Notes under the pieces: generated by a model
Told to the model about the DNA's origin: nothing
What the model saw: the letters and a program-made list of their open reading frames with translations, nothing else
Databases searched by the model: none
In this document: piece by piece, positions 1-38,852 of the stretch
How the letters are laid out: every line of letters starts with the position of its first letter
Numbering within the stretch: the first letter of the stretch is position 1
From: a virus
Direction: 5' to 3' (one strand)
DNA length: 39,207 nucleotides
IMG/VR virus record: IMGVR_UViG_3300045988_127422
Location: 1-39,207 of that record
Made by a program: the position numbers and the translations under genes

Positions 1-188
1 AATATCACCCCGTTCACTATTATGATATACATACTACCTTGGATTGTCAAGTACTGTGTTATACGTATTTGATTTAGATGAATTTAACATCGAATATTCA
101 CTTTATTTTAAAATATCTATCTAACGAAGATTTTAGTAGGATATAGGTGAAATAATATATAGTGCTAATTGATCCTTTAATGTATTAA

Positions 189-296
189 CACAAACACCTG
201 GAAACATATAGGTATCTGGATAACAAAGGTCAACATACAGTGGATACAGTAGCTCAGATGGAATATGAAAGTATTAAAGAAGGAAAAATAAAATGA
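189..296 (+). pseudogene. 3' remnant of an XRE/CI-like repressor gene (no start codon, no HTH part)
   Basis: The frame is open only from 189. It reads HKHLETYRYLDNKGQHTVDTVAQMEYESIKEGKIK*, which aligns with the C-terminus of the intact repressor at 38314..38664 (LLDIYRVLDDKGQHTVDTVTQMEYERVKKDNK*). The DNA is similar but clearly diverged. The TGA stop overlaps the ATG at 293 (ATGA). Confidence 0.55.
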
Positions 297-784
297 AATT
301 TCAAAGATTTAAACGCGGAAGTGTTGTAATGGTGGAATTTTCACCATCTATGGGTAGTGAAATCAAGGGGAAACATTTAGCTATCGTTTTAACGAAAAAT
401 GATTCACCTAATAATGGTGTGCTAACAGTAATTCCATTAAGTTCAAAAAATAAGCCTTATTATGTTCCAATCGGTAATTTTTTTCTTAATGAAGCAATCC
501 CTTTCTTAGATAAACAATTAAATGAATTCATAGAGAACATTAAAAATGTTACAGATGAAGAGAAAAAAGCAATGTTAGATAATGCAAATAAGTTTATTTT
601 GGTTGCCAAAATGTATCAAAAAATGGGTGTTGACTCCTATGCAATGGTACAAAATATCTCCACAATCAGCAAATTAAGAGTTCTTAAACCAATAAACAAG
701 TATGATCCCATTTTAAAAATTAGAGTTTCAGATGAAATCATGACAATACTTGATAATAAATTAATAGAATTATTTACAAAGTAA
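293..784 (+). CDS. PemK/MazF-fold toxin-like protein with a central insertion
   Basis: N-terminal FKRGSVVMVEFSPSMGSEIKGKHLAIVLTKND...VLTVIPLSS and C-terminal SYAMVQNISTISKLRVL match the PemK/MazF pattern (RGdv..vdf.p..GsE..g.RP.lVls ... v..Pits ... S.v..dQirtidk.Rl). Confidence 0.55.
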   Translation: MKFQRFKRGSVVMVEFSPSMGSEIKGKHLAIVLTKNDSPNNGVLTVIPLSSKNKPYYVPIGNFFLNEAIPFLDKQLNEFIENIKNVTDEEKKAMLDNANKFILVAKMYQKMGVDSYAMVQNISTISKLRVLKPINKYDPILKIRVSDEIMTILDNKLIELFTK

Positions 785-826
785 ATCTTTTGACTTTAGA
801 GTTATGAGATGTTAATATACTTATGA

Positions 827-874
827 ACAACGGCCTTAGCGCCATTGATTATTACACAACGGCCTTAGCGCCAT
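827..874. repeat. Two exact 19-bp direct repeats ACAACGGCCTTAGCGCCAT (827..845, 856..874) separated by 10 bp
   Basis: Read directly. The repeats are GC-rich in an AT-rich intergenic region and fall in different reading frames, so they are unlikely to be coding. Confidence 0.8.
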
Positions 875-1033
875 GTAGAAAGTCACTGATTTATTTCAGT
901 GGCTTTTCTTTATTATCAAATCTTTGTGTGAATGTCAAATCTATGGCTGCTTAATTAATGCTGAAGAAGAGATTTTGAACGCAATTTCAAATTTTTAGGG
1001 CCTAATTAAGATATAATACAACATAAAATCATT

Positions 1034-1061
1034 AAATCCCCTTTATATAAAAGGGGATTTT
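1034..1061 (+). terminator. Hairpin AAATCCCCTTTAT/ATAAAAGGGGATTT followed by a T-run
   Basis: Near-perfect 13-bp stem (one extra A) followed by TTTT, in the intergenic region. Confidence 0.5.
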
Positions 1062-1195
1062 GCTTAGTTAGTAAATTTTTCGTAGATGTATGCCTTGTTT
1101 ATGCATATGATTTATACTTTATATAAAGGTATGTGTTTCATATAAAATATTACTTTTTAATACTTTTAAAAAATAATAAGTCAAATTCAAGTCAT

Positions 1196-1224
1196 AAAAA
1201 AGAACCTACGCATTACACGTAGGC
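1196..1224 (-). terminator. Rho-independent terminator downstream of the endolysin gene
   Basis: The minus strand reads CCTACG-tgtaatg-CGTAGG followed by TTCTTTTTT, immediately after the stop at 1235. Confidence 0.6.
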
Positions 1225-1234
1225 TTCATTATAT

Positions 1235-2329
1235 TTACGCAATTTCTGTTAACGGTGTTGGGTCAACCCAAACGCCACCAATCTTGACAATATTCTTTTG
1301 AACATTCACTGCATCGACTCTGATTCTAGATACATAGACTACTGCATTTGTGGTATGCAATACATTGTCATTATATCCGTCTGAATTAGGTACTTTGTCT
1401 ACCATACGAATTGGAAACCAACCACCCAGTTTTGATAGATAGCAACATAAATCATCGCCAATTTTCTTCAAGCCTTGATTTCCGATTTTCATATGTACAG
1501 AAGTAACATAGCTACCTTCATGTAAAATTTGATCGATAGCTTCACTACTTGATTGCGTCGTTCCTACTGGTGTATGAGGGTCTGTATCGATACCTGCATC
1601 ATTTGTCCATCCAATAGCTACTCCATTACGATCAACACGATATGGATATTTAGAGCCTTTAATAACTCTACCAATTGAACCGTTCCAATCTCCTTTTAAG
1701 ATTTTAGAAGTTCCGTAGCAGTTAACGCTTAATGTATTTGTGCAGATAGGTGTACCGACTGAATACTTTTCACCACTTGGAGTGTTTGGAGTACTTGGAG
1801 CGCTTGGTGCTACAGTTTGACCATCCAATCTAGCATTTACTTCTTTTGCTAATTGATTCATCTTAGAATGTAAATAAGGACCAGGACAAGATGTTGCTGC
1901 GAACATTCTATGTTCTGTCAAACTTCCAGTTGAATCACCAGTGTAGTTTAATCTGAATCCATATCGTTTACATACATCCACGCATAGATTTACTAATGCA
2001 TTCCATGCTTTTGGTGAGATTGTCCACGTATCTGTATTATCATTAGCAATTTCAATTGTAATTGATTGGCAATCGTTGTAGTAGTTTGATGATGTCCACG
2101 CTCTATTTTCTTCGTCGACATTCGCTACAATCGTACCATCTGAACCAATACAATAGTTTGCACTAGCCATTCTTCCGCTTACTTGGAATGACTGAGCACA
2201 TCGTTCTGCAGTCCATTCGCAAGCCATATGATGAGGTGTGATTTTACAAATCTTATATCCTCCACGACCACGCATATAGTTATCTGCACTTGCAGGAATA
2301 TATTTATTAGTTAAGCTTGAGTAAGACAT
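1235..2329 (-). CDS. Endolysin: N-acetylmuramoyl-L-alanine amidase (Amidase_2/PGRP type) with a C-terminal cell-wall-binding region
   Basis: ITPHHMA...ASANYCIGSDGTIVANVDEENRAWTSS...SITIEIAND...TEHRMFAATSCPG are Amidase_2 hallmarks. A Pro/Ser/Thr linker precedes a roughly 190-aa C-terminal region. It is the last gene of the late operon. Confidence 0.85.
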   Translation of the reverse strand: MSYSSLTNKYIPASADNYMRGRGGYKICKITPHHMACEWTAERCAQSFQVSGRMASANYCIGSDGTIVANVDEENRAWTSSNYYNDCQSITIEIANDNTDTWTISPKAWNALVNLCVDVCKRYGFRLNYTGDSTGSLTEHRMFAATSCPGPYLHSKMNQLAKEVNARLDGQTVAPSAPSTPNTPSGEKYSVGTPICTNTLSVNCYGTSKILKGDWNGSIGRVIKGSKYPYRVDRNGVAIGWTNDAGIDTDPHTPVGTTQSSSEAIDQILHEGSYVTSVHMKIGNQGLKKIGDDLCCYLSKLGGWFPIRMVDKVPNSDGYNDNVLHTTNAVVYVSRIRVDAVNVQKNIVKIGGVWVDPTPLTEIA

Positions 2330-2415
2330 TCATCTTCACCTTCTTCTTTTCCATTTGATAGCTCTGATTGAGCTTCTTCTGATAATTCTTCAAATTGTAC
2401 TTCTTTTTCTTCCAT
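2311..2415 (-). CDS. Small acidic ORF (34 aa, MEEKEVQFEELSEEAQSELSNGKEEGEDECLTQA), unknown function
   Basis: Not in the ORF track because it is under 60 aa. It has a strong SD (TAGGAGGcaaaattt-ATG) and overlaps the endolysin start. Confidence 0.4.
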   Translation of the reverse strand: MEEKEVQFEELSEEAQSELSNGKEEGEDECLTQA

Positions 2416-2427
2416 AAATTTTGCCTC

Positions 2428-2826
2428 CTAATTTTTTTCGACTAAAAAGTCTTGAATTTCCTTTCGCGTAGCCTTCAGGCTTTCTTTATCATCTTCAGAT
2501 AACATTCCGTCAAGAATGGCCATGTTCGCTTTTAACATCAGATCGCCCCGCTCTTTATCAGCCTCAAGCCTTTGCTCGTGTTCAGACAAAAGTTGAGAAT
2601 GCTTATTTAGTTCTGCTTTGATACCTTCCTGAGCAATCAATAATGTTTCGATTGACTTGATTCGTTCATTATCGCGTTTCAACCATTCTTCATGCCTTCT
2701 AACTGTTTCTTTTAAGTCGTCATTCGGCTTTTTAAAATCTTTGTAAACCTTCCAAGCGCCACCGATAGTGATGACTGCTCCGCATACCAATAAGAATTGG
2801 CGGACTGCAATTATAATTTCATCCAT
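2428..2826 (-). CDS. N-terminally membrane-anchored coiled-coil protein of the lysis module (holin accessory or holin-like)
   Basis: One hydrophobic segment (IIIAVRQFLLVCGAVITIGGAW) is followed by a charged heptad-like region. It sits between the holin and the endolysin. Confidence 0.4.
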   Translation of the reverse strand: MDEIIIAVRQFLLVCGAVITIGGAWKVYKDFKKPNDDLKETVRRHEEWLKRDNERIKSIETLLIAQEGIKAELNKHSQLLSEHEQRLEADKERGDLMLKANMAILDGMLSEDDKESLKATRKEIQDFLVEKN

Positions 2827-2840
2827 TGCAGACCACCGAA

Positions 2841-3056
2841 TTAATTTTCTTTCGTTGTTTCAACTTCTGGTAAGCCGGCCAAAGATGTCAAAAGCGATAA
2901 GATTCCTGCCAAAGCAGTGCTTGATACCACAACTTTAATATCCACCTGTTCCATCAATTGTGATGTTCCAATCATCGCGATTGCAGTTTGACACATTGTT
3001 TTTAAGCAGCGTGTGCAAGCTGCATTCCACCACTTAACATTTTTTAATTGTTCCAT
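2841..3056 (-). CDS. Putative holin (72 aa, two hydrophobic segments)
   Basis: I moved the start to the ATG at 3056 (MEQLKNVKWW...), which has the SD AAGGAGAG 8 nt upstream and removes the overlap with 3061..3285. Hydrophobic stretches are TMCQTAIAMIGT and VVVSSTALAGILSLLTSLAGL. It lies upstream of the endolysin. Confidence 0.6.
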   Translation of the reverse strand: MEQLKNVKWWNAACTRCLKTMCQTAIAMIGTSQLMEQVDIKVVVSSTALAGILSLLTSLAGLPEVETTKEN

Positions 3057-3060
3057 ATCT

Positions 3061-3285
3061 CTATCTCTCCTTACTAACTCCATAATTATCCACAATGTGC
3101 CAGTCATCACATGCACAATTGCTGATTGTATACACGATATCATCTGAATCTGTTAATTTGAAATCAACACCATCTTTTGTGTGGATCATGATGATTCCAT
3201 CTACGATATGCCAATATCCAGTCCAATGACTACGTGCCACCTTGTGGCCACGTGTCATAGATATAAATGCAGATGCAAAATTCAT
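3061..3285 (-). CDS. DUF2829 / Tad2-like small protein
   Basis: MNFASAFISMTRGHKVARSHWTGYW...CDDWHIV fits the DUF2829 pattern (mnFg.Al.alk.GkkvaR.gW.g...... dDW.iv). Confidence 0.55.
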   Translation of the reverse strand: MNFASAFISMTRGHKVARSHWTGYWHIVDGIIMIHTKDGVDFKLTDSDDIVYTISNCACDDWHIVDNYGVSKER

Positions 3286-3298
3286 ATACAGTTACCTC

Positions 3299-3547
3299 CT
3301 AGATCAACTCAACATTTTCAATCTTTGTACGAATAACAAGGATGTCCATATATCTTTTCATGGCATCTAATTGAAGATCATAGATTTCTCTTGGACAAGT
3401 CGGTTTGAAATTCAACTTTCCTTCATCCCATTTTTCGCACATAGCTTTCAATTTGTCGTGACGAATCTTTACTTGAAAATACTCGCCTTTGAATCTGTCT
3501 TTGTAATCTGCAGAGTTCATCAACTCTACTGTTTCATTTAACTCCAT
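3299..3547 (-). CDS. Hypothetical small phage protein
   Basis: ORF with an SD (AGGAGGAAAG). The motif KDRFKGEYFQVKIRHDKL...CPREIYDLQLDAMKRYMDIL resembles a family of small helical proteins common in Firmicutes phages. That is a recollection, with no function assigned. Confidence 0.5.
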   Translation of the reverse strand: MELNETVELMNSADYKDRFKGEYFQVKIRHDKLKAMCEKWDEGKLNFKPTCPREIYDLQLDAMKRYMDILVIRTKIENVELI

Positions 3548-3557
3548 AACTTTCCTC

Positions 3558-3806
3558 CTATAATTTAGTTACATTTAACATCACATAGCCTTCTTTGAAT
3601 CCATCGTTAGTAGTGATGCTGCGAATCTGTGTCATTCTAAATAAACCAGTATCCATTTCTTTTCCTTCGTCTAACGATACTTGTTTAAATAACACATAAT
3701 CTTGTTCATTGATTTGCTCATCAGTCAAATCAAGAATAATAAAATCGTGTTCTTGGAAAAAATTCCATAATTTAGTATTTAAATTGATTTCATGTGTTTT
3801 AACCAT
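3558..3806 (-). CDS. DUF3850-like (ASCH/PUA-fold) protein
   Basis: THEINLNTKLWNFF...DYVLFKQ...GLFRMTQIRSIT...GFKEGYVMLNV resembles the DUF3850 pattern (THELKi.p.yF... gD.l.l.E...tGr....i..i.....gl..gyvil). SD is AATAGGAGGC. Confidence 0.45.
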   Translation of the reverse strand: MVKTHEINLNTKLWNFFQEHDFIILDLTDEQINEQDYVLFKQVSLDEGKEMDTGLFRMTQIRSITTNDGFKEGYVMLNVTKL

Positions 3807-3849
3807 TTAAAAGCCTCCTATTAATATAAAAAAAGCGAGGTAAACAAAA

Positions 3850-4743
3850 ATGCTATATTCTGACAAATTACATTCTTGGTTAAAAGAAAAGAAAATCTAT
3901 CTAAAATACAGCACTTACACAAATTATTGTAATGTGATTCATAATCACATACTGCCATCACTTGGCAGTTATCAAATCGAGGAACTGAACAATGATATTC
4001 TTCAGGAAATGATTCTTCAAAAACTTGAAAATGGTCGTAAAGATGGAAAAGGTGGCATTTCTTTTAAATATGCCAAAGACATTATTCAAATTCTGAAGTT
4101 CACACTTCCATTTAAAATCGATATTCAACTTCCATACCATCCTCCTACGGCGGTAGAAATTTTTGAAAAAGAAAATCAAATCTCATTGATTAATCACCTC
4201 CAATCTGAGATTAATTACAAAAACTTTGGAATCCTGTTATGCATCCACACTGGAATACGCATAGGTGAACTATGCGCTTTGAAATGGTCTGATATAAATG
4301 TACAGACCAAACTTTTAAAAATTGACAAAACCATGATTCGCACATATACAAAAGAAGATGGTAGTCACTTGTATGTGACACCACCTAAATCACGTTCTAG
4401 CACTCGTATGATTCCCTTGAACACATGGATAATGCATTATGCAATCCTTCTACAAGGTGATGCAGATAACTATGTATTAACAAATCGAGATAAACCAATA
4501 GAGCCTAATAAATACAGGCTTTACTACAATAGAGTTTTAAAAGTGCTTGACCTACCACATCTCAAATTCCATGCACTCAGACACACATTCGCAACAAGAT
4601 GTATTGAATGTGGTTGTGATTATAAATCACTGAGCGAATTGTTAGGACACTCCAACGTATCAATCACAATGAACATCTACGTTCATCCACAAATGGAATT
4701 GAAGCGTAAATGCGTTGAACTCTTGTGTGACTACTACAAGTAA
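3850..4743 (+). CDS. Tyrosine site-specific recombinase (Xer/phage-integrase family, 297 aa); proposed shufflon invertase
   Basis: Catalytic signature: GIRIGELCALKWSDI (Arg I), HALRHTFATRC (H-x-x-R), LLGHSNVSITMNIYVH (His and the nucleophilic Tyr). It has an N-terminal SAM-like domain. Its stop codon (4741..4743) lies 2 nt from the first recombination core. Confidence 0.9.
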   Translation: MLYSDKLHSWLKEKKIYLKYSTYTNYCNVIHNHILPSLGSYQIEELNNDILQEMILQKLENGRKDGKGGISFKYAKDIIQILKFTLPFKIDIQLPYHPPTAVEIFEKENQISLINHLQSEINYKNFGILLCIHTGIRIGELCALKWSDINVQTKLLKIDKTMIRTYTKEDGSHLYVTPPKSRSSTRMIPLNTWIMHYAILLQGDADNYVLTNRDKPIEPNKYRLYYNRVLKVLDLPHLKFHALRHTFATRCIECGCDYKSLSELLGHSNVSITMNIYVHPQMELKRKCVELLCDYYK

Positions 4744-4745
4744 AT

Positions 4746-4758
4746 GTATGTCATTTAC
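4746..4758 (+). repeat. Shufflon core site 1, GTATGTCATTTAC
   Basis: One of six copies of GTATGTCnTTTAC, preceded by A[T/A/G]. In every copy the ATG TCn TTT AC phase encodes MSFT. Confidence 0.85.
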
Positions 4759-5050
4759 TACTGATTCTATTGGTGGAGAATATAAACATAAACTTCAAGA
4801 AATTGAAATGCCAAAACATCATCATGGCGAACGTATATTGGTTAAAGGATATTCTGAATGGGATTCAATGACCACAAGTGATTATGGAATTATAATTGAC
4901 TATTCAACGAAAAACTATGTCGTTCCAAAAACACACGTAAATGCAGCTGATGTGACCACGTTTTGCTATACTGGGTTTGCAGGAGATAACGTTCATCATA
5001 ATAATATCCAACCTTATATTGTGACTTATTTTTGGCGAAGAACGAAGTAA
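4748..5050 (+). CDS. Silent RBP C-terminal cassette A (100 aa, MSFTTDSIGGEYKHKL...HHNNIQPYIVTYFWRRTK)
   Basis: No SD upstream. It starts in the core site. It shares the GGEYKH.L..EMP.H.H ... HNN.QPY....FWRR.K framework with the 3' end of the RBP gene. Confidence 0.8.
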   Translation: MSFTTDSIGGEYKHKLQEIEMPKHHHGERILVKGYSEWDSMTTSDYGIIIDYSTKNYVVPKTHVNAADVTTFCYTGFAGDNVHHNNIQPYIVTYFWRRTK

Positions 5051-5057
5051 TGTTTAT

Positions 5058-5070
5058 GTATGTCTTTTAC
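5058..5070 (+). repeat. Shufflon core site 2, GTATGTCTTTTAC
   Basis: Read directly. Confidence 0.85.
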
Positions 5071-5308
5071 ATCTGGAAAGTTGTATGGCGAATACAAACA
5101 CAAACTAACAATACAAGAAATACCTAGTCATGCACACAAATTTAATGACTGCGCTTGGATTGATGGAAAAGGAAATATTCAATCCGCATCAAACAACTCC
5201 TGGTTTAACGGTGGATTTATGAGCGATACAACAAGCGCAGGAGGGGATAAAGCTCATAATAATTTACAACCATCATTTGTCGTTTTCTTTTGGAGACGAA
5301 CTGCATAA
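5060..5308 (+). CDS. Silent RBP C-terminal cassette B (82 aa)
   Basis: MSFTSGKLYGEYKHKLTIQEIPSHAH...AHNNLQPSFVVFFWRRTA. No SD. Confidence 0.8.
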   Translation: MSFTSGKLYGEYKHKLTIQEIPSHAHKFNDCAWIDGKGNIQSASNNSWFNGGFMSDTTSAGGDKAHNNLQPSFVVFFWRRTA

Positions 5309-5321
5309 GTATGTCCTTTAC
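5309..5321 (+). repeat. Shufflon core site 3, GTATGTCCTTTAC
   Basis: Read directly. It starts 1 nt after cassette B's stop codon. Confidence 0.85.
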
Positions 5322-5613
5322 TTCTTCCGGAACTGGAGGAGAATTCAAACATCAATTAAATTATTACGAAATGCCAAGCCATGTGCATAATGAGTATGCA
5401 ATGGTTGAAGGATACACTGGATGGGATACTTTTACGCCATTACCATATTCAATGTTGTTTAGATTTGGCGGAGGCGACTATCGAGAAAACGTATCTCAAT
5501 ACCACGCAGCTAGAGTTTCATTAAACACATTCACTTCAAGCGAAGGAGGAAGTCAAAGTCACAATAACATTCAGCCTTATATCGTAGTTTATTTCTGGAG
5601 AAGGACAAAGTAA
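5311..5613 (+). CDS. Silent RBP C-terminal cassette C (100 aa)
   Basis: MSFTSSGTGGEFKHQLNYYEMPSHVH...SHNNIQPYIVVYFWRRTK. No SD. Its stop abuts the stop of cassette D, tail to tail with zero spacer. Confidence 0.8.
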   Translation: MSFTSSGTGGEFKHQLNYYEMPSHVHNEYAMVEGYTGWDTFTPLPYSMLFRFGGGDYRENVSQYHAARVSLNTFTSSEGGSQSHNNIQPYIVVYFWRRTK

Positions 5614-5904
5614 TCACTTGATTCTTTTCCAGAAGAATACTGTTGTATATGGTTGAATGACATTATGCGCTTCGTTATTGCCAACATATGAGCCATATCT
5701 ATTTTTATCGTAATCATGAATAAATGGAGTAAATGTTCCTGATCGATTATTGTCTCCTAAATAAGTCATGTTATAGAATCCTGTATTACCGCCATATGCA
5801 GTAATAATATCCCAATCATGTGGACGGTGAGCGTGTGATGGCATTTCGTTCAAAGATAGTAAATGCTTATATTCGCCACCCACTTGATTGGCAGTAAAGG
5901 ACAT
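5614..5904 (-). CDS. Silent RBP C-terminal cassette D (96 aa), same orientation as the expressed gene
   Basis: MSFTANQVGGEYKHLLSLNEMPSHAH...AHNVIQPYTTVFFWKRIK. No SD. Confidence 0.8.
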   Translation of the reverse strand: MSFTANQVGGEYKHLLSLNEMPSHAHRPHDWDIITAYGGNTGFYNMTYLGDNNRSGTFTPFIHDYDKNRYGSYVGNNEAHNVIQPYTTVFFWKRIK

Positions 5905-5906
5905 AC
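5894..5906 (-). repeat. Shufflon core site 4 (minus strand GTATGTCCTTTAC)
   Basis: The plus strand reads GTAAAGGACATAC. Confidence 0.85.
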
Positions 5907-5924
5907 CTTGAATAACGATTATAT

Positions 5925-5937
5925 GTATGTCATTTAC
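5925..5937 (+). repeat. Shufflon core site 5, GTATGTCATTTAC
   Basis: Read directly. It lies 18 bp from site 4, head to head. Confidence 0.85.
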
Positions 5938-6205
5938 TGCTGGATGGATTGGCGGTAACTACTTTCATAAACTTACGCGTGAAGAGCTACCGAGCCATAC
6001 GCATTGGATCTTAGACCAACAAACTGATGTAACAACTGCATTATATGGTAATTCATATAGTGATGTGCCTTTTACGAGAGCCACTGAACGTACTAATAGA
6101 ACTAATTATTATTGGTACGGTCAAACATGGCGAACAGGCGGAAACAAACCACACGATAATGTACAACCTTACGTGGTAACTTACTTTTGGAGACGTATCA
6201 AGTAG
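5927..6205 (+). CDS. Silent RBP C-terminal cassette E (92 aa)
   Basis: MSFTAGWIGGNYFHKLTREELPSHTH...PHDNVQPYVVTYFWRRIK. No SD. Its stop abuts the RBP stop, tail to tail with zero spacer. Confidence 0.8.
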   Translation: MSFTAGWIGGNYFHKLTREELPSHTHWILDQQTDVTTALYGNSYSDVPFTRATERTNRTNYYWYGQTWRTGGNKPHDNVQPYVVTYFWRRIK

Positions 6206-8065
6206 CTATTTTACCCTTCGCCAAAAGAAAACAACTAAATATGGTTGCACGTTATTGTGTGGAATATTGTTACCAGAACCATTTGTATGAATACTATTTA
6301 CATTGTGACTTTGACCATCAGAATGATGCGAACCATTAATGGTCATAAATTCCCACGGAGTAGTTGTTAAAACGCCAGACGTACCCCATATACCAACTTC
6401 GTGTGCGTGAGCAGGCATTTCAGAATATGATAACGTATGATAGTATTCTCCACCTTCAGAATTGGATGTAAAGGACATACTTGTACTACCATCGTTTCCA
6501 GTACCTTCACCAACCAAAGTTCGACCTTGGCCAAACTGTACCCATGTCCCGCCTAGGAATGTTCCAGGGTTCTTTTTATCATAAGTGATGTATACTGCAC
6601 CAACCGGAAATATCTTATTTAAGAACATAGGCGCTACAATATCACCTAATACTGTTAATGTGTCTTTTTGATTACTATCTTGGCCGAAGAAAGTTAATGA
6701 TCTTCCATCTTTACCAAAGTTAATTAAGGAATAAGTAGGAGTTACAGTAAATATCTGCCATGAATAATCATTCATGAACTTATCCTTAACACCGAACGCA
6801 ACCTCATAAGAGCTTGTTGCAGATGTAAATAAATTACCTGCTTTATAGTCTTGCTCAAGCGCATAGTTGTTGTCCCATGAATTTATTTTAGTCCAACTAG
6901 TAGCACCACTCGCTCTATATTGGATATAGAATGATGTTACATTCTTATTGCTTAAACTAGTAAATCCAACTTTGAAGTGTAATAAAGCATATGTACCACT
7001 TGCCTCATCAACTACATAACTTGAGTTAGTACGTTTTGCAGTTACATTAGTCAAACTTGGCGAGCTATATGCCGACACAGTAACTGAACCGCTCTTAGAT
7101 GCGGTACGACCACGTGAATCTGTAACTGTGATTGTGTACGACAACTTGCCACTTCCCTGTACAGTACCTGTAGTAAATGAACTATCATTGTATGTTTGTC
7201 CTTCAAATTTAGTTGATACAGATGTAACAGTTGAGCCTTGACTACCACTTGTAGCAATTGAGAACTTTAATCTTGATTGACTTTGAACATGTTGACCTAT
7301 TCCTACGCAGATTGAATTTATATCAGATATCGAGACCGTTCCAACGCTAGGAACGACTCCACTTCTTACTTTAATTGTTGCATTTACTGATTTTGAGCCA
7401 ACCGAAGTTGAACCACTGAATGTTTCTAATGTAAATGTAGCAATTCCGCTTGTCGAATTAGGTAAGTCCTTTTCCCATGCGGTAGGAATCGTATAAGAAA
7501 AAGTGGGTGTTAATGTCCCACTTATCGTTGTTAATTCACTTGTTTTACCATTCCATGTTGCGTAGATTTTATGTGTAAAGTTTTTTGAAGCACTCGAGCC
7601 ATTAATATTTATAGTTTTACCACATTCAATGCTAGGGCTATCAATAGATATGCTTGATGCTCTTGGAATAGTTGTCAATTTAACAGTACCACTGCAAGAA
7701 CCAGTAATAGGTGCATAATATCCAGAGTTACTTCCACTGAAAGATGCGCTTGCTGAAATTGTTTTTGAACCATCTGCATCATGTGAAATAGTTACCGTTC
7801 CACTTTTTACACCAACAAGAGTTCCAGCTGGAACATTAGGTGTAAAGCTTTGATCTAACACTTGAGTACCATTCACGGATACTTTAAATGTTTCTGGAAT
7901 TCCATTGTGTGTATGGTACTGCGTATTAGATCGAATACCAACCCACCACTCTACATATGATGTGTTGTTTTCAACAGAATAAGATATTTCATTGATTCGT
8001 AATATTAACGAGTATTTATCCCACTGACCACTACCAATTTGTATTCCACCACTAAATTCTGCCAT
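6206..8065 (-). CDS. Receptor-binding / tail-fibre protein with a C-terminal tail-collar-like domain (currently expressed tip = 6206..6478)
   Basis: It is the last structural gene after Tal. It has Ser/Thr/Gly-rich beta-type repeats. The C-terminus reads FPVGAVYITYDKKNPGTFLGGTWVQFGQGRTLVG...SMSFTSNSEGGEYYHTLSYSEMPAHAH...PHNNVQPYLVVFFWRRVK, the phage tail collar (PF07484-like) pattern. Confidence 0.8.
   Translation of the reverse strand: MAEFSGGIQIGSGQWDKYSLILRINEISYSVENNTSYVEWWVGIRSNTQYHTHNGIPETFKVSVNGTQVLDQSFTPNVPAGTLVGVKSGTVTISHDADGSKTISASASFSGSNSGYYAPITGSCSGTVKLTTIPRASSISIDSPSIECGKTININGSSASKNFTHKIYATWNGKTSELTTISGTLTPTFSYTIPTAWEKDLPNSTSGIATFTLETFSGSTSVGSKSVNATIKVRSGVVPSVGTVSISDINSICVGIGQHVQSQSRLKFSIATSGSQGSTVTSVSTKFEGQTYNDSSFTTGTVQGSGKLSYTITVTDSRGRTASKSGSVTVSAYSSPSLTNVTAKRTNSSYVVDEASGTYALLHFKVGFTSLSNKNVTSFYIQYRASGATSWTKINSWDNNYALEQDYKAGNLFTSATSSYEVAFGVKDKFMNDYSWQIFTVTPTYSLINFGKDGRSLTFFGQDSNQKDTLTVLGDIVAPMFLNKIFPVGAVYITYDKKNPGTFLGGTWVQFGQGRTLVGEGTGNDGSTSMSFTSNSEGGEYYHTLSYSEMPAHAHEVGIWGTSGVLTTTPWEFMTINGSHHSDGQSHNVNSIHTNGSGNNIPHNNVQPYLVVFFWRRVK
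6468..6480 (-). repeat. Shufflon core site 6, inside the expressed RBP gene (minus strand GTATGTCCTTTAC)
   Basis: The plus strand reads GTAAAGGACATAC and encodes the SMSFT junction of the RBP. Confidence 0.85.
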
Positions 8066-8069
8066 TTAA

Positions 8070-11000
8070 TCACCCTACTTTCTTGAAGTCTAGCGAGCCA
8101 TTTGCTCTTGGCACGAATCCAAATGCACCAACTTTCAAAGACTGTGTGAATTGTCCATCTGTGATGTACATTGTTTGATCGTTTATATAAGTAACTTTCG
8201 CACCATTCTTTTGAATCGACCATTCTTGGTTTGTAATCTTAGTTTTAAATGCACTGTCTGATTTACCTAAAGTCAACGCATCATTATCGAAAGACATATA
8301 ACTGTTTACGTTATCTGCAGTTTGTTTTAAACCATCCAATCTACCATTCACACTGCTGATTTGACCATTCATTTCATTTTTAGCATCGGTCACGCTTCGA
8401 TTAATTGACCACGTAAAATCGCTCTTAGTTTGGCTAAACTGAGTAGATACTTCTTCTTTATAATGATTCAAAGCCGAATTTGATACGTAAGTTTCGCTAA
8501 CTTTCGCAGTAATTTCATTCGCTTTTGTCTCAATGGCAGATTGTCGTTCTGTACGTTCTTCATTGACTGCTTCCCATGAACTATCACATACAGGAGTGGT
8601 ATAAACTGTTGAAGCAGGATTCTTATAAACCACTTTATACCTAGTCCATAAATATTTACCATTTGACCACGTAGGCATTGATTCAACCCATGAGCCACCG
8701 GTTTGAGTGGTTTTCGAGTCGCTCATGTAATACTGTTGTGTCATACTAGCTACACCAGTACCAGTCGCACCAGTAGGGCCTTGAGCCCCTGTTGCTCCTT
8801 TATCACCTTTCAATCCCTGAGGTCCTTGAGGACCAACATCTCCTTTTAATCCCTGTACTCCTTGCGGTCCACGTTCTCCTGTGGCACCAGTGGCTCCTCT
8901 ATCTCCTTGAGCTCCTTTTATTTTGGCCCATGTATAACTTGAAACAGAATTAGAGTCGGCCTCAACAAAATCTGTATAAGTACCAATATAATCCCCTACA
9001 GTCTCTCCTGAATTAGAAGTAAATGTTTTACCACCATCATTTGAATACTTTACATGAAAATATGTAGTTTTTCCTGTAGCTCCATCTTTACCAGGAGTTC
9101 CATTAGTTCCATCTTTTACAGTTTGACTTGTTTTTGTACCATCAGGGTTATTTACAGTAATAGTTGTAGTGTTTCCACTTTTGCTAACAGACACAGTTGG
9201 TGATTTACCATCAGCGCCTTTAGGACCAGTATCTCCTTTTAGTCCTTGAGGACCCTGTGAACCTGTCTCGCCCTTAACTCCTTGTGGCCCTTGAGGTCCT
9301 GTTTGTCCGATTTCGCCTTTTTCACCTTTCGCTCCGTTCACACCCATACGAGCTACAGAATATCCAACAGTAGGAGTTCCGCTTGTATAGTTAGTTGTAG
9401 TCTTTGTCCATAAATATGAACCTTGAGCAACAGATGGAATTGTAGAAGACCATGTTCCTGTAGGTACAGTAGTGCCAGAAGTAGAAGCTTGGTATTCAAC
9501 GGATGTACTTTTAACACCACGACCATCAAACTCACCACTATTAGCTCTATCAGTTAGACTATTGGCTTTATTTAATGCACTTGATGCATTACTGTTTGCA
9601 GTATTTGCCACTCCTTTAATTTCTGTAACAGATGTAGCTTGTAATTTAATAGCTTTTGAATTCTGTTCAATTGCAGTTGTGTTAGAAGTAACTTTGTTTG
9701 TTAGTTCTGCAAGGTCTTTCTGAGCTTGTTCTGCTTTAGCTTTTGCATCATCCGCCACTCCTTGAGCCGTCTTTGCATTATTGATTGCCGTAGTTGCGTT
9801 GCTTTGAGCCTTAGTTGCATCAGACTGAGCTTTCTGTACTGCAGATTCTGCGTTTGTTAAACGTGTTTGAGCTTTTGTAATTTCACTCTCAGTCGCATCA
9901 ACACGACCTGTGACTGTTTCTAAATTAGCTTTTGCATCTGCCAATTCTTTATTAGCATTGTCTAAGTTAGTTTGAGCACTATCTGCTTTTTTCTTCGCTT
10001 GGTCTGCTAGAGTTTGAGCGCTCTGAGCATTACCTAAAGCTTTATCTGCTTGAGTTTGAGCATCCGTTGCTTTCTTTGTTGCATCAATAATATCTTTCTG
10101 AGCTTTAGTTGTATCAGATTGCAACTTTTCAATTGAACTTGCTTGAGTTGTGATTGAATCGGCATTTTGTTTAATCTTGGTATTTAAACTACCTTCAATG
10201 CTTGTTAAATCACTCTTAGAAGCATAAGTTTCTGATACAGTAGTCGACAATTCACCAACTTTCTTTTCAATTTCTGTTGTAACATCTGCATGAATTGTTT
10301 TTGATTCCGTAGTTAAATCAACTTTTGTAGCGTATGTTTCTTTAACTGTATTGATTTCATTTGCATTTGCATTTGCTTTATCAACCGCATCTTGAATTTG
10401 TTGCTTTGAATCAGTGATATCGCCTTTAATCGCATCAATCTGTTTCTGAGCGTTACCAGTACTAGTATTGGCATCTTGTGCTAGTTGCTTAGCTTCACTT
10501 GATTGAGCATTTGCAGTTGTAGCTAATTCATTCGCTTTACTTGCAGCCGTTTGAGCTTGTGTTGCTTTTTCAACTGCTTCTTTTGATTGCACATTTGCTT
10601 GAGACACTTGAGTGTGAATCTCACCGATTTGCGCATCAATCTCATTCCAGGTATTATCAAATATAGCTTTCGTATACTTGATTTCACTAGGATTAGCATA
10701 CGTACATTTCCAACGTTTCCAAAGGAATTTATCTGATTGATAAACCACATTACCAACGAACCATTCGCCACCAATTAATTCGGTTTGTGATGTTGAATAA
10801 TAGAATTGTTCTTCGGCACTCACAAATGACTGACCATCTTCCCCTTTAATTGCACTCCATCGGTATTTGGTTGGGTCATCACTGCCATATTGCTTTGAGT
10901 CAGAATACTGACCAATAAATTTACGATTTGAGTCTGTCAAACTGAAATCAACACGACCATCTGAACTGTTGGCATAGGCAATATGCACATATGCACTTGT

Positions 11001-12452
11001 TCCATTCTGACCATCTTGTAGTCGCATTACAGTGACTTCTGCGCTTGCTTTAAGTATTTCACCACTCATTGCTTTAAATCGATATACGGCCTTTTCTGTG
11101 AAATCTGAAGCGTTGACTGTGATTGTTTGGCTAGTTGATAATTGCACATCATCTTTATACCAAATGATTGAATACTTAGATGTAATATCAACACCATCAT
11201 TTTTAACTAATGCAGTCAATTTAGTTGAATCTGAATCATTTTTAAAAAGAACCCCATTTGAAGATACAATCGAGCCTTCATAAACTTTTTTTAACTCAAT
11301 CATCTTGTTCATTTCTGAAATAAGAGCCGAACTAATCTGTGATTGTTTTTCTTCAAAGTTATCAAAAATTGTCTTGCACTTTTCTGTATCTGTAAAACAA
11401 ATCTCTTGTTCCGTTATTCGTGCTTCTAAATATAAAGTAGGACTATACTCCGCATCTTCGATGGTAAATGTATCGCCAATATCAGCATCAATATATGCAT
11501 CTACATCGTATGTAACTTTAGGAACACAATTCTTTTTCAATTGAGCTAGTGCTTGACCATATAAGGTTTCTACACTGTCTGTTTCATAAGACCACACTAG
11601 CACTGCATACATATCGTTTGAATGATTTGTTAATAACGTACTAGGAAATCTATCTCTAGATTGAGGTGCAAGTATATTGTTACCTTGAACTTTATACAAA
11701 ACGTTTCCATTTGAATCTTTTACAACACGGCCACTAATCGAGTTAAGTTGTAACCCATTATTACCCGTAGGTCTGATACCTGTATACAACTCTGTAATAT
11801 CACTTGTTTTAGTGATTCCGTAAACATCATTAGGATATCTTAAGATCGTACTGCGTTTATCTGTTCCCATACCTTGAACTGAATCTGAATGAGCACGATA
11901 AATATTCAACACAACATTCTTCAACGAGTAATCATCATTTAATTGAGTAATAAACTCTAGCTCTGCATCAAATACATTTGCGATTGAATACAATCTTGCA
12001 AGCACTGTATCACTGCCAGTCCATTCGTGACTAATCTTCTTATTAGATACTTCATTTCGGCCAATTGTGAATGATTGCTCAAATCCATACGCACTAACAT
12101 ATTCTGCAAATGACATCGCTCTAGGCGCTTTATATGCATCTACATATTCATTCGTTAATTCAAGGCAAAGACCATAGGCGGTAACGTTTGTCGTGTTACC
12201 ACCTTTTTCTACGTTCATGATCGTTAAATAATAGCCTTTGTTCTTTCTTGTAAAGCTCAGTTTATTTCCTTCAACTAAAAAGGCTGCATCATCATGTGCA
12301 GTCAATGTTGTAAATTCAAATGTATATGCCGAGCCTTTCAAGTATGTATGCAAGGTTTCATCAAAGTAATGCATTGCGCTAGGTACTGTATTGTCTAAAA
12401 AAGCTAGAACCTTGTCGTATGGAGTCAATACTGCTATTCTGATTTGTTCCAT
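8070..12452 (-). CDS. Tal-like tail tip / minor structural protein (about 1460 aa) with coiled-coil and collagen-like regions
   Basis: It follows Dit. The N-terminal roughly 380 aa resemble the prophage-tail (Tal, SPP1 gp21-type) domain. It contains repeated Y.H.(A/K)Y(A/S)...Y.W..IKG and QYY.S.S....GG.W.....(K/S)(Y/F)LW.R modules. I prefer the ATG at 12452 (MEQIRI) because GGAGG lies 10 nt upstream and it forms a TAATG junction with the upstream frame. The track start at 12461 is only 1 nt from the SD. Confidence 0.8.
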   Translation of the reverse strand: MEQIRIAVLTPYDKVLAFLDNTVPSAMHYFDETLHTYLKGSAYTFEFTTLTAHDDAAFLVEGNKLSFTRKNKGYYLTIMNVEKGGNTTNVTAYGLCLELTNEYVDAYKAPRAMSFAEYVSAYGFEQSFTIGRNEVSNKKISHEWTGSDTVLARLYSIANVFDAELEFITQLNDDYSLKNVVLNIYRAHSDSVQGMGTDKRSTILRYPNDVYGITKTSDITELYTGIRPTGNNGLQLNSISGRVVKDSNGNVLYKVQGNNILAPQSRDRFPSTLLTNHSNDMYAVLVWSYETDSVETLYGQALAQLKKNCVPKVTYDVDAYIDADIGDTFTIEDAEYSPTLYLEARITEQEICFTDTEKCKTIFDNFEEKQSQISSALISEMNKMIELKKVYEGSIVSSNGVLFKNDSDSTKLTALVKNDGVDITSKYSIIWYKDDVQLSTSQTITVNASDFTEKAVYRFKAMSGEILKASAEVTVMRLQDGQNGTSAYVHIAYANSSDGRVDFSLTDSNRKFIGQYSDSKQYGSDDPTKYRWSAIKGEDGQSFVSAEEQFYYSTSQTELIGGEWFVGNVVYQSDKFLWKRWKCTYANPSEIKYTKAIFDNTWNEIDAQIGEIHTQVSQANVQSKEAVEKATQAQTAASKANELATTANAQSSEAKQLAQDANTSTGNAQKQIDAIKGDITDSKQQIQDAVDKANANANEINTVKETYATKVDLTTESKTIHADVTTEIEKKVGELSTTVSETYASKSDLTSIEGSLNTKIKQNADSITTQASSIEKLQSDTTKAQKDIIDATKKATDAQTQADKALGNAQSAQTLADQAKKKADSAQTNLDNANKELADAKANLETVTGRVDATESEITKAQTRLTNAESAVQKAQSDATKAQSNATTAINNAKTAQGVADDAKAKAEQAQKDLAELTNKVTSNTTAIEQNSKAIKLQATSVTEIKGVANTANSNASSALNKANSLTDRANSGEFDGRGVKSTSVEYQASTSGTTVPTGTWSSTIPSVAQGSYLWTKTTTNYTSGTPTVGYSVARMGVNGAKGEKGEIGQTGPQGPQGVKGETGSQGPQGLKGDTGPKGADGKSPTVSVSKSGNTTTITVNNPDGTKTSQTVKDGTNGTPGKDGATGKTTYFHVKYSNDGGKTFTSNSGETVGDYIGTYTDFVEADSNSVSSYTWAKIKGAQGDRGATGATGERGPQGVQGLKGDVGPQGPQGLKGDKGATGAQGPTGATGTGVASMTQQYYMSDSKTTQTGGSWVESMPTWSNGKYLWTRYKVVYKNPASTVYTTPVCDSSWEAVNEERTERQSAIETKANEITAKVSETYVSNSALNHYKEEVSTQFSQTKSDFTWSINRSVTDAKNEMNGQISSVNGRLDGLKQTADNVNSYMSFDNDALTLGKSDSAFKTKITNQEWSIQKNGAKVTYINDQTMYITDGQFTQSLKVGAFGFVPRANGSLDFKKVG
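8754..8915 (-). repeat. Collagen-like Gly-X-Y block 2 (18 triplets) within Tal
   Basis: GAQGDRGATGATGERGPQGVQGLKGDVGPQGPQGLKGDKGATGAQGPTGATGTG. Confidence 0.9.
9201..9335 (-). repeat. Collagen-like Gly-X-Y block 1 (15 triplets) within Tal
   Basis: GAKGEKGEIGQTGPQGPQGVKGETGSQGPQGLKGDTGPKGADGKS. Confidence 0.9.
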
Positions 12453-12676
12453 TATAACCATGCCTCCCTTATTCTAGCTTTCACTGTCGGCTTCGATTTT
12501 GACCAACTAGAGCACGTAGTCTTTATTTCTGTAGTTCCTACTGGTGCTTTAAAATACTTAGTTCCTAAAACCTCATCTTGAGGTCTAGACATTCCGTTTA
12601 CATAAACGTGTGATGACTTACCATCAATTGTAATTTTCGTACCATTAGGATATCTATTAGGAATATCTCTCCATTT
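12452..12676 (-). other. In-frame 74-codon continuation of Dit beyond its TAA stop (conserved Dit C-terminus)
   Basis: Directly after TAA (12677..12679) the same frame stays open: KWRDIPNRYPNGTKITIDGKSSHVYVNGMSRPQDEVLGTKYFKAPVGTTEIKTTCSSWSKSKPTVKARIREAWL*. It has no start codon or SD of its own at its 5' end. Its TAA overlaps the Tal ATG (TAATG), as at other junctions in this operon. Confidence 0.6.
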
Positions 12677-13978
12677 TTATACATTATTTTTTGTAAAATT
12701 GATTACATCAAATCCCATCATTGACATCAGTTGATTACCGCCTCTATCACCCCATTGCTTGAACGCAATCTGAATTTTAGCGCACTTCATATTTGCAATT
12801 TCTGGAATGTAATAATTGTAATATCCCCCCCAGTAGAAGAATCGGATGTTTCCGCCTTCTTTTAACACATCGCAATGTCCCCAACTCCAATACCAAGGAT
12901 TTTGTGTGTGTAAATGTGAAGTTGTATATGAGAAGTTTCTAAGCATTTTGCCGTTTGCCCAAAACTCATAATGTCCTGTATTGCCTACTGTATCTGTCTT
13001 GTACCAGTTACAACCACATATCAATTTATTGTCTGCAGTTAAGAAGTTGATACACATTTCTCCTGTTTGCCCCATTAGACCTGCATAAAACAACAAATGA
13101 AAATAACAATAGAAGTTCTGAGCACCACTTGCATCTCCATTTGAATCTGCAGGTATTACCAAGGTTCTTAATCCACCACTCGCAGACCCTTTTTTTGCTC
13201 CAACAGTGCCAAATCCAATAAACTTTTGATTAAACCAAGTGTGTTCGGCTAATGTACCGTTCGAACCGTACTGAGGATGCATTACATCCGTTCCACCAGT
13301 GTCATCTGCACAATTGTAAAAGTTGTTGATGCTAACTAAATGTTCGCTTTGTTGATATGTTTCTGAATCAAGCTCCTCAATTTTTCCATATTGCATTACT
13401 CCTTCAGTTGACATGATACCAATATATCCGGTTTCAGATGTTGCTTGAATTTCATAATCGATACTTACAGGCACTGTACCTTCATTTACGATGTTCAAAA
13501 CTCCATCAGTAGCAGTAAATTCTTTTTCTGTGGATGAATATTTCCTAGGATCTGAGCAATAGATTTCGATTTCACCGATCACGTTATTACTTCCGCCATC
13601 AACTTGTGTGTTAGATGTCTTAGTTCCAATGAAATACTTGTCGCTTTCATCATTAAAAATGACCTTTACTTGCTCGCCACTCAACAATTTATTCATCTTG
13701 TTGTAAGCTTCTCGAAATTCTCTGCTTCCTCTAGCTCTCAACTGGTACTTAACAGTAATCGTTCTTGCAGGACTTGTTTTATATCTGTAATAAGAACCAT
13801 CCATTCCATCAATTTCAGTATGTTTTACTTCTGATTCCATCAACTCACGTCCTGTTACAGAAAGTGTACGATATCCATCTATTTCATTTTCTAAATATAC
13901 GCCATTATATGACATGGCTTCTGTCGGTAGGTTAGTACCGACGATACCACTATTTACTGTATTTACGAATGCATACAT
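12677..13978 (-). CDS. Distal tail protein (Dit, Sipho_tail family) with a large internal insertion; ORF ends at a possibly premature TAA
   Basis: It lies between the tape measure and Tal. The N-terminal domain motif is GVLNIVNEGTVPVSIDYEI. The start overlaps the tape-measure stop (TAATG). Confidence 0.75.
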   Translation of the reverse strand: MYAFVNTVNSGIVGTNLPTEAMSYNGVYLENEIDGYRTLSVTGRELMESEVKHTEIDGMDGSYYRYKTSPARTITVKYQLRARGSREFREAYNKMNKLLSGEQVKVIFNDESDKYFIGTKTSNTQVDGGSNNVIGEIEIYCSDPRKYSSTEKEFTATDGVLNIVNEGTVPVSIDYEIQATSETGYIGIMSTEGVMQYGKIEELDSETYQQSEHLVSINNFYNCADDTGGTDVMHPQYGSNGTLAEHTWFNQKFIGFGTVGAKKGSASGGLRTLVIPADSNGDASGAQNFYCYFHLLFYAGLMGQTGEMCINFLTADNKLICGCNWYKTDTVGNTGHYEFWANGKMLRNFSYTTSHLHTQNPWYWSWGHCDVLKEGGNIRFFYWGGYYNYYIPEIANMKCAKIQIAFKQWGDRGGNQLMSMMGFDVINFTKNNV

Positions 13979-38292: not shown

Positions 38293-38313
38293 TAAATCGT
38301 GAGGTATATAAAT

Positions 38314-38664
38314 ATGTCAGAAATTAAAGATAGAATTATTGAAGCATTAAAATACAATAGAATGAGTGCAAAAGAACTTAGTGATAAAACTGGTATTCCA
38401 AAATCGTCTATATCTCAATATATGAGCGGATATGCCAAACCGAAACATGACCGAATTTATCTAATTGCTAAAGCATTACACGTTGATGAAGCTTGGTTGA
38501 TCGGCTATGATGTTCCGATGGTTAAAGAGACATTCACACAGAATCTCTCCCCAAACGAAAAAAATCTCTTGGACATATATCGTGTTTTAGACGACAAAGG
38601 CCAGCACACAGTGGATACAGTCACACAAATGGAATATGAAAGAGTTAAAAAGGATAATAAGTAA
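38314..38664 (+). CDS. CI-like XRE-family repressor
   Basis: MSAKELSDKTGIPKSSISQYMSGYAKPKHDRIYLIAKALHVDEAWLIGYD is an HTH_3 motif. Divergent from cro. ATG at 38314 (the track starts at an upstream GTG within the SD). Confidence 0.85.
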   Translation: MSEIKDRIIEALKYNRMSAKELSDKTGIPKSSISQYMSGYAKPKHDRIYLIAKALHVDEAWLIGYDVPMVKETFTQNLSPNEKNLLDIYRVLDDKGQHTVDTVTQMEYERVKKDNK

Positions 38665-38832: not shown

Positions 38833-38852
38833 GTTAGGAGGAGATTACAAAA

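Follow-up and report, generated by a model that had tools for sequence, protein, structure and literature searches.

The closest described relative of the system reported here is the Rin shufflon of Bifidobacterium breve and Bifidobacterium longum prophages, which combines an arm-less tyrosine invertase and 11-bp rix sites with a constant Rc gene and several Rv cassettes, and whose inversions were seen in both prophage and virion sequence (Mavrich et al. 2018, PMC6109161). Its authors presented Rin as the first phage-encoded tyrosine-family invertase (PMC6109161). Eggerthella lenta clade-1 prophages have the same architecture (PMC8778435), an active tail-fibre shufflon is on record for BV01-like phages of Phocaeicola vulgatus (preprint, PMC13596623), and large-scale screens place phage tail genes among the targets of programmed inversion (PMC9881135). 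Here we analyze a 39,207-nucleotide stretch of viral DNA (IMG/VR record IMGVR_UViG_3300045988_127422, positions 1 to 39,207; hereafter the window), which is a prophage, a temperate siphophage integrated in Holdemanella (Erysipelotrichaceae, Bacillota, human gut). We conclude, with a probability of roughly 0.87, that this prophage carries an active multi-site inversion shufflon that swaps the C-terminal tips of its DUF859 tail protein, and the comparison of assembled sequences strongly supports site-specific multiple inversion as the way in which the tip is exchanged. A literature search found no published description of a Holdemanella or Erysipelotrichaceae system. The evidence supports well the view that the shufflon is of the Rin-like kind already known, and that what is new is the host phylum, the target fold, the site and the shared cassette pool.

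Four hallmarks of a Rin-type system are present at the locus: an adjacent arm-less tyrosine recombinase, cassettes of one fold that lack a Shine-Dalgarno sequence, a rare repeat, and alternative cassette orders. As with Rin, the phage is a temperate siphophage of a Gram-positive gut host, the recombinase flanks an array of C-terminal cassettes with the constant gene opposite, a short asymmetric repeat lies at the cassette 5' ends and inside the expressed gene, and orders differ between near-identical prophages. The two systems differ in their hosts (Actinomycetota there, Bacillota of the family Erysipelotrichaceae here), in their sites (TTCCCTAACCC there, GTATGTCnTTTAC here) and in their targets, which are TP901-1-like or H-type-lectin tips in Rin and a DUF859 protein with a T4-gp10_C-like head split in mid-domain here. 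Unlike in Rin, every cassette of the Holdemanella phage takes its first four residues (MSFT) from the core of its site. Furthermore, the Rin inversions were read directly from induced virions whereas those reported here are known from assemblies alone, and the likeness is one of architecture. An earlier note on this DNA had held that no multi-cassette, tyrosine-recombinase tail-tip shufflon had been characterized in a Gram-positive siphophage, which is wrong in view of Rin (PMC6109161, 2018) and the Eggerthella lenta prophages (PMC8778435). The BV01 system resembles ours in belonging to a gut temperate phage and in having a recombinase that flanks a multi-cassette region of about 1.7 kb overlapping a tail-fibre gene's distal end, which gives rise to six protein variants and whose configurations were quantified from reads (PMC13596623); it differs in its Bacteroidota host, its 10-bp motif TGGGAGAACT and its three cassettes.

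The 13-bp core GTATGTCNTTTAC has six exact matches in the window, all of them inside 1.75 kb and none elsewhere (4746+, 5058+, 5309+, 5925+, 5894- and 6468-); the chance expectation is 0, and no match appeared in 100 dinucleotide-preserving shuffles. The four plus-strand and two minus-strand copies in a single codon phase, ATG-TCN-TTT-AC (MSFT), which the earlier note had reported, were recovered exactly, and the rest of its description of the sequence also proved accurate. The sixth core lies within the 619-aa open reading frame at 6206-8065(-), where ...GNDGSTS is followed directly by MSFTSNSEGGEYYH. Extended to both arms, the sites read as follows: site A, GTAAAT-GTATGTC-ATTTAC, 19 bp with perfectly inverted arms (4740-4758, plus strand); site B, GTTTAT-GTATGTC-TTTTAC (5052-5070, plus); site C, GCATAA-GTATGTC-CTTTAC (5303-5321, plus); site D, TTCAAG-GTATGTC-CTTTAC (5894-5912, on the minus strand); site E, TTATAT-GTATGTC-ATTTAC (5919-5937, plus); and site F, GTACAA-GTATGTC-CTTTAC (6468-6486, on the minus strand and inside the expressed gene). 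The 20-mer that forms the body-side junction of site F, GATGGTAGTACAAGTATGTC, is conserved across the whole family.

The site logo was built from 222 unique site contexts at 116 loci, with the left arm taken from 74 unique non-coding left flanks. Across the 222 contexts the GTATGTC core and the nTTTAC right arm are essentially invariant. The non-coding left flanks read G (0.69), T (0.80), A (0.64), W and A (1.00) at positions -6 to -2 and, when in register, fit GTAAA at 3.62 of 5 positions on average, compared with 1.0-1.8 at other offsets, so that the left arm is an imperfect inverted copy of the right arm. The full site is GTAWAn-GTATGTC-nTTTAC, with two inverted 6-bp arms and an asymmetric 7-bp overlap, as in the classical core sites of tyrosine recombinases. 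In the R64/IncI shufflon the sfx sites are similar in that they have a 7-bp core and that conservation is good in the right arm and poor in the left (PMC11852207), and differ in that their arms are 12 bp long compared with about 6 bp here. A two-site relative in Firmicutes bacterium M10-2 (L179, KE159692.1; sites at 6903(+) and 7433(-), recombinase 61% identical) carries the variant core GTATGAC in both of its sites. The overlap therefore covaries within the locus, as expected if the overlaps of partner sites must match.

Each core heads a cassette that matches the Pfam family Gp10_C. Five cassettes are silent in the window, and the lengths of 82-100 codons given for them in the earlier note were confirmed: cassette A (4748-5050, plus strand, 100 aa, E=1.9e-8), B (5060-5308, plus, 82 aa), C (5311-5613, plus, 100 aa), D (5614-5904, minus, 96 aa) and E (5927-6205, plus, 92 aa). 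The sixth, cassette F (6206-6478, minus, 90 aa and a stop), is the tip expressed here and is silent in the related contigs L001, L002, L044 and L056. It is fused to the constant body of the tail protein (aa 1-529, 6479-8065, minus), which is made up of DUF859 and the opening third of a head domain that resembles gp10_C. Over its full 619 aa the protein matches DUF859 at aa 17-432 (E=1.4e-42) and Gp10_C at aa 482-618 (E=5e-23) and belongs to PHROG 372, annotated 'tail protein', and a profile of its last 150 aa matches the C-terminal domain of the T4 baseplate protein gp10 (2FKK, E=9.5e-10). The constant part just before the crossover reads ...FPVGAVYITYDKKNPGTFLGGTW.QFGQGRTLVGEGTGNDGSTS, and the cassettes share the framework MSFT..GGEY.H.L...E.PSH.H, followed by 30-50 hypervariable residues and then HNN.QPY.V.FWRR.K. 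Because each of the six cassettes matches only positions ~55-139 of the Gp10_C profile, the crossover divides the head domain at roughly one third of its length.

The cassettes are packed tail to tail with zero spacer, as the earlier note had described, C against D between 5613 and 5614 and E against the expressed tip F between 6205 and 6206. Cassettes D and E lie head to head across an 18-bp spacer (5907-5924) that carries the left arms of sites D and E and forms an invertible segment of its own; in L001 the ends of this spacer are joined to cassettes C and A, not D and E. Tail-to-tail cassettes in an invertible segment are also found in Mu Gin, P1 Cin and p15B Min, in which an invertase encoded by the phage likewise exchanges the C-terminal portion of a protein for tail adsorption, and Min too is a six-site multiple inversion system. 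However, Gin, Cin and Min are serine invertases that depend on Fis and an enhancer, compared with a tyrosine recombinase here, and they belong to Enterobacteria myophages or plasmid prophages whose cassettes come with a separate downstream chaperone gene.

Every cassette has an ATG and its own stop, and gene callers annotate the silent cassettes as separate genes, which would fit small proteins expressed independently, such as tail-fibre chaperones or alternative subunits. We find this barely credible: none of the silent open reading frames has a usable Shine-Dalgarno sequence at its start, as the earlier note had also observed, compared with a match of at least 4 nt in 21 of the 23 other genes of the window; the first third of the fold is missing from each of them; and each is found elsewhere fused to the body. 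A scan of positions 2800-8200 for promoters and terminators found no more sites than in shuffled sequence.

The alternative products of the locus exist in nature. Among the 120 closest tail-protein homologues in the database, all six tips occur fused in frame to the constant body, which bears out the expectation of six alternative tips from one gene. Tip D is found in P0010 (body 99.8% identical, tip 100%; contigs L001, L056 and L137), tip C in P0013 (body 99.2%, tip 100%; L002), tip E in P0015 (body 99.6%, tip 98.9%) and in P0016 (L044), and tip B in P0036 (body 96%, tip 100%; L046); the closest expressed form of tip A is P0032 (body 96%, tip 89%), and the nearest protein with tip F is P0001 (body 97.4%, tip 98.9%). 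We then compared the contigs that encode these variant-tip proteins or the exact recombinase. In public gut-metagenome contigs whose flanks are at least 99.7% identical, the same six cassettes stand in five different orders, and not in the one fixed arrangement that would have spoken against switching. Written with '>' for a cassette on the same strand as the tail gene, the order of the window (0 inversions) is F>E<D>C<B<A<, which is shared by L050, L054 and L057, all three 100% identical to the window over 13.7 kb. The order C>D<E>F<B<A< of L002 is the exact product of one inversion, 6468(-) x 5309(+), an event that had been predicted from the window alone. The order E>F<B<[spacer]C>D<A< (L044) lies 3-4 inversions from the window, D>C<[spacer]A>E>F<B< (L001) lies 4, and D>C<A<[spacer]F>E<B< (L056 and L137) lies 5-6. 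Segments of L001 are 98.0-99.9% identical to the window, the lowest value being that of the 50-bp spacer segment, and in L056 and L137 the body and recombinase DNA is 100% identical to it. As the DNA is near-identical and yet the orders differ, rearrangement must outpace point mutation by far. Shuffling from sample to sample is also seen in a second phage group (recombinase DNA 99% and body 90% identical), represented by five samples of one study and one other sample.

When inversions between oppositely oriented cores were searched breadth-first, all observed orders proved to be legal and to lie 1-6 inversions from the window. There are 320 configurations that keep every junction between an upstream flank and a cassette head. 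Inversion alone leads to all of them, and any of the six cassettes can be brought into the expressed position. The earlier note had argued that cassette D, being in direct orientation, needs a prior inversion before it can be expressed, and the comparative evidence supports this mechanistic reading, with the D tip expressed in L001, L056 and L137. One could instead regard the locus as a static array of paralogous pseudo-cassettes, its different orders being assembly errors or old, fixed differences between lineages, and all of the evidence does come from assemblies. There is very little room for this explanation, as repeats of 13-19 bp are shorter than assembler k-mers and make misjoins unlikely, the orders recur in independent assemblies (L056 equals L137; the window equals L050, L054 and L057), orders 4-6 inversions apart are found on DNA that is 99.6-100% identical, and the silent cassettes are intact and 99-100% conserved.

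The position of the exchange can be read from the flanks. There are six left flanks, namely the body, the two spacer ends, the tail of B, the tail of A and the recombinase end, and the cassettes that follow them change from order to order, with the breaks falling exactly at the core. N, the variable base, travels with its cassette (B keeps T, E keeps A), and because it does so the crossover is confined to the 7-bp GTATGTC. The gene for the candidate enzyme, a recombinase of 297 aa with SAM-like core-binding and catalytic domains (3850-4743, plus strand), ends with its stop 2 nt ahead of the first core and overlaps the left arm of site A. Pfam recognizes Phage_integrase (E=3e-28) and Phage_int_SAM_3 (E=3e-11) and nothing else, so the protein lacks an arm-binding domain. 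Alignment to Tn1549 Int, the nearest solved structure (6emy, E=4e-17), gives a complete catalytic set, R137, K180, H241, R244, H267 and Y277, and all of the residues R-K-H-R-H/W-Y of the tyrosine recombinase superfamily are thus present; together with Pfam, the full set from R137 to Y277 upholds the earlier identification of a 297-aa tyrosine recombinase just before the first core. Against NCBIfam nothing scored above the cut-off, with only sub-threshold matches to Xer, integron-integrase and invertase families, and no assignment to Rci was obtained there or elsewhere. The recombinase gene adjoins the cassettes in every complete related locus and sits between the tail and lysis modules in all relatives. 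More distant recombinases, 34-40% identical to this one, occur in Bacteroidales/Muribaculaceae metagenome-assembled genomes (MAGs; L180-L183), and near these neither the GTATGTC core nor the BV01 motif was found.

We also considered whether the 297-aa enzyme is the prophage integrase, and rejected this: it has no arm-binding domain, its stop codon overlaps a palindromic site, and relatives carry an arm-type integrase. In two related phages (contigs of L032/L063 and of L016/L066), which have a cI repressor 97-99% identical and the same body junction, a separate integrase of 368-373 aa with Arm-DNA-bind_4 lies near the cI-type repressor gene and adjoins a moron gene and the host gene rnhB. Because of this separate integrase, the missing arm-binding domain, the overlap of stop and site, and the position between tail and lysis modules, the 297-aa enzyme is probably not the integrase of the window's phage. 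The same observations bear on a further explanation, RecA-type homologous recombination between the conserved 5' ends of the cassettes, with the recombinase an unrelated integrase or Xer-like resolvase. The cassettes are indeed about 60% identical over about 60 nt at both ends, and no other integrase is visible in the window. Even so, homologous recombination is a very improbable cause: every exchange falls at the same 7 bp, the inverted arm is conserved in non-coding left flanks, the core covaries within a locus, and the shared identity is just 13-19 bp, which is too short for efficient RecA recombination. The arm-less enzyme, whose stop overlaps the perfectly palindromic site A, and the arm-type integrase next to the cI-type repressor gene in relatives likewise argue against it.

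In the mechanism that we propose, the recombinase would act on the six 19-bp sites, with strand exchange within the 7-bp overlap. Each site heads a cassette encoding the C-terminal two-thirds or so (82-100 aa) of the T4-gp10-like head domain, and recombination of site F with any oppositely oriented site would invert the intervening DNA and bring a different cassette into frame behind ...GNDGSTS. The silent cassettes would be reordered by inversions between the remaining sites, such that all six tips could be expressed. This is much like the R64/IncI shufflon, in which the tyrosine recombinase Rci acts on sfx sites to exchange C-terminal cassettes of pilV by multiple inversions, although the target there is the conjugative thin-pilus adhesin PilV on a plasmid of Enterobacteria and here a phage tail protein (DUF859, Gp10_C).

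Assemblies of related phages often break at this locus, a feature shared with IncI shufflons, which are hard to assemble (PMC5430464). Contigs bearing the body junction end within 150 bp of it in 19 of 110 related contigs; five of these ends coincide with the last base of GTATGTC, another lies directly behind the 13-bp core, and five and two lie at +55 and +99, respectively. On the recombinase side, two MAG contigs also stop right behind GTATGTC. De Bruijn-graph contigs would be expected to end at the last shared base, or k past the first, when two continuations coexist, and +55 and +99 look like typical assembler k values. Contig ends at the core may therefore be a signature of alternative junctions within one sample.

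Several points weigh against the reading of an active, inversion-driven switch of receptor-binding tips. Heterogeneity within a population is suggested by assembly break points and between-sample comparison alone. Catalysis by this particular recombinase is deduced from adjacency, conservation and site architecture, and a separate integrase in the window's own phage is presumed from its relatives, as the contig stops past the cI-type repressor gene. The direct sites A, B and C should allow deletion, and the second phage group, in which L051-L053, L055, L058 and L059 hold 3, 5 or 6 cassettes, appears to have undergone it: the two five-cassette loci (L052 and L055) lack exactly one cassette, which fits a single deletion between direct sites, and the losses in L052, L055 and L058 suggest that the system is not strictly inversion-only. 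Cassette loss in these relatives suggests that deletion is not fully suppressed, a difference from R64. The role of the tail protein as the receptor-binding protein is likewise presumed. The full-length AlphaFold2 model, made from an alignment of 50 sequences, is poor, with a mean pLDDT of 61.5, values mostly below 50 over aa 444-531 at the end of the constant body and 52-64 over the tip, and surface residues of the tip cannot be read from it; it is because of this that the T4 gp10 C-terminal fold was assigned by profile search. A decayed copy of the locus was also seen (L049, GCA_037022285.1, JBAMEH010000097.1, 10001-13082), in which the tail protein stops 5 aa past MSFT, one cassette-like open reading frame is left, and the genes for the tape-measure protein (TMP) and Dit are split; it may be either a degenerating prophage or a low-quality assembly.

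Tip switching probably changes adsorption or host range, that is, which cells the phage attaches to. It could be argued that the shufflon is real while the DUF859/gp10_C protein is an accessory baseplate or tail decoration and not the primary receptor-binding protein, so that switching would serve the binding of a secondary ligand or mucus, or the evasion of a host surface defence. No experimental function exists for DUF859 and PHROG 372 says no more than 'tail protein', while the upstream 1463-aa Tal matches collagen-like and 'host specificity' families and might be what binds the receptor. We nevertheless think an accessory role improbable. The DUF859 gene directly follows Tal, and in low-GC Gram-positive siphophages receptor-binding proteins or peripheral baseplate proteins are encoded directly after Tal; the head of the T4 gp10/gp11/gp12 type is, moreover, a fold of fibre attachment and receptor binding. 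The cassettes, of more than 50 types, keep their framework and are hypervariable in the middle, which is the pattern of ligand-binding diversification. Finally, adsorption proteins are the targets of all phage inversion systems known (PMC6109161, PMC9881135). Tal itself, upstream of the shufflon gene, varies in length among near-identical phages (L001, L002, L044-L059), with host-specificity proteins of 1264, 1269, 1291, 1320, 1460 and 1463 aa, and is a second hot spot of tail variation.

The shufflon is widespread in the human gut. The 20-mer of the body junction occurs in 57 human-gut metagenome contigs, which carry from one to at least seven cassettes each; with the cut-off set at 70% identity, these cassettes fall into more than 50 types. 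One contig of 163 kb (L143, ERZ779866 NODE_12) encodes a 742-aa tail protein whose N-terminal body is only 25-35% identical in amino acid sequence to that of the window. It has the body junction in common with the window, its recombinase protein is 76% identical, and the DNA of its cassettes C, E and F matches that of their counterparts in the window at 96-99% identity; near-identical cassettes on a diverged body show that cassettes are shared among diverged shufflons. The route of sharing would be homologous exchange or possibly site-specific excision and re-insertion. An extension of the latter would treat the shufflon as an integron-like platform for cassettes that is mobile and has been grafted onto tail-protein bodies unrelated to one another, in which the recombinase, the conserved body junction and the cassettes would form the mobile module, and single cassettes would excise as circles through recombination of direct sites and re-insert site-specifically in a co-resident prophage. 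We regard this extension as unlikely, but if it were true, a community-wide pool of more than 50 receptor-binding tips would be available. Among deposited phages, a megablast search of the locus against 50,697 genomes gave no match, and tblastn found relatives of the recombinase below 40% and of the tail protein at about 30% identity (Streptococcus phages A25, T12 and 315.5). With only such distant relatives in deposited phage genomes, no cultured phage carries the system. A scan of genome contigs with the tail protein likewise gave no match.

The assignment to Holdemanella is consistent with several lines of evidence. The exact recombinase sequence is a member of a 90%-identity cluster of 2,215 sequences, one of which is annotated Holdemanella biformis, a species placed by taxonomy in the Bacillota and Erysipelotrichaceae, and a genome scan with the recombinase found a Holdemanella MAG at 93% identity as well as Floccifex and other Erysipelotrichaceae at 61-74%. 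Contigs 100% identical to window positions 1-13743 run leftward into the host genes PadR, HAAS, UbiB, lspA and rluD. The minus strand of the window encodes RecT, YqaJ and a replisome organiser, then head and tail genes with the tape-measure protein, Dit (12677-13978, minus) and Tal (1463 aa with collagen-like repeats, 8070-12461, minus). Past Tal the order is the DUF859 tail protein followed by the shufflon and, on the opposite strand, the recombinase, and beyond the recombinase lie three small open reading frames, holin genes and an amidase endolysin (1235-2329).

The three small open reading frames between recombinase and holin (3061-3806, minus) include one of the crAss001_48 family (PF21825; 3299-3547, minus), one with a weak, sub-threshold match to a Tad2-like protein of Thoeris anti-defence (3061-3285, minus), and one that matched no family (3558-3806, minus). 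At the right edge of the window lie a cI-like repressor (38299-38664), for which an exact sequence look-up returned no record, and downstream of it a partial abortive-infection-like gene of the Abi_2 family (about 38850-39207 and off the window end, plus strand; Pfam E=8e-16), which is probably a prophage moron. The integrase of the phage would be expected past this gene, outside the window, and the separate integrase was located through relatives in IMG/VR. Near the left window end, a 69-bp stretch (223-291) shows 82% identity to the cI-like repressor gene at its 3' end (38594-38660) and lies just upstream of a PemK-like open reading frame (293-784). It may be the remnant of an earlier prophage or part of an attachment region, or it could represent the last part of an HTH antitoxin gene that forms a pair with PemK.

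The presence of such a system in Holdemanella prophages means that tyrosine-invertase shufflons of receptor-binding proteins extend beyond phages of the Actinomycetota and are common in prophages of the Erysipelotrichaceae, an abundant Bacillota family of the human gut for which, to our knowledge, almost no phages have been cultured. The system is compact, giving up to six tips per phage, and seven in relatives, from a pool of more than 50 cassette types, and its small recombinase and short sites could serve as a multi-inversion tool in the synthetic biology of Gram-positive bacteria. Assemblies of these phages break at the shufflon, and host-range prediction from one assembled tail gene will mislead.

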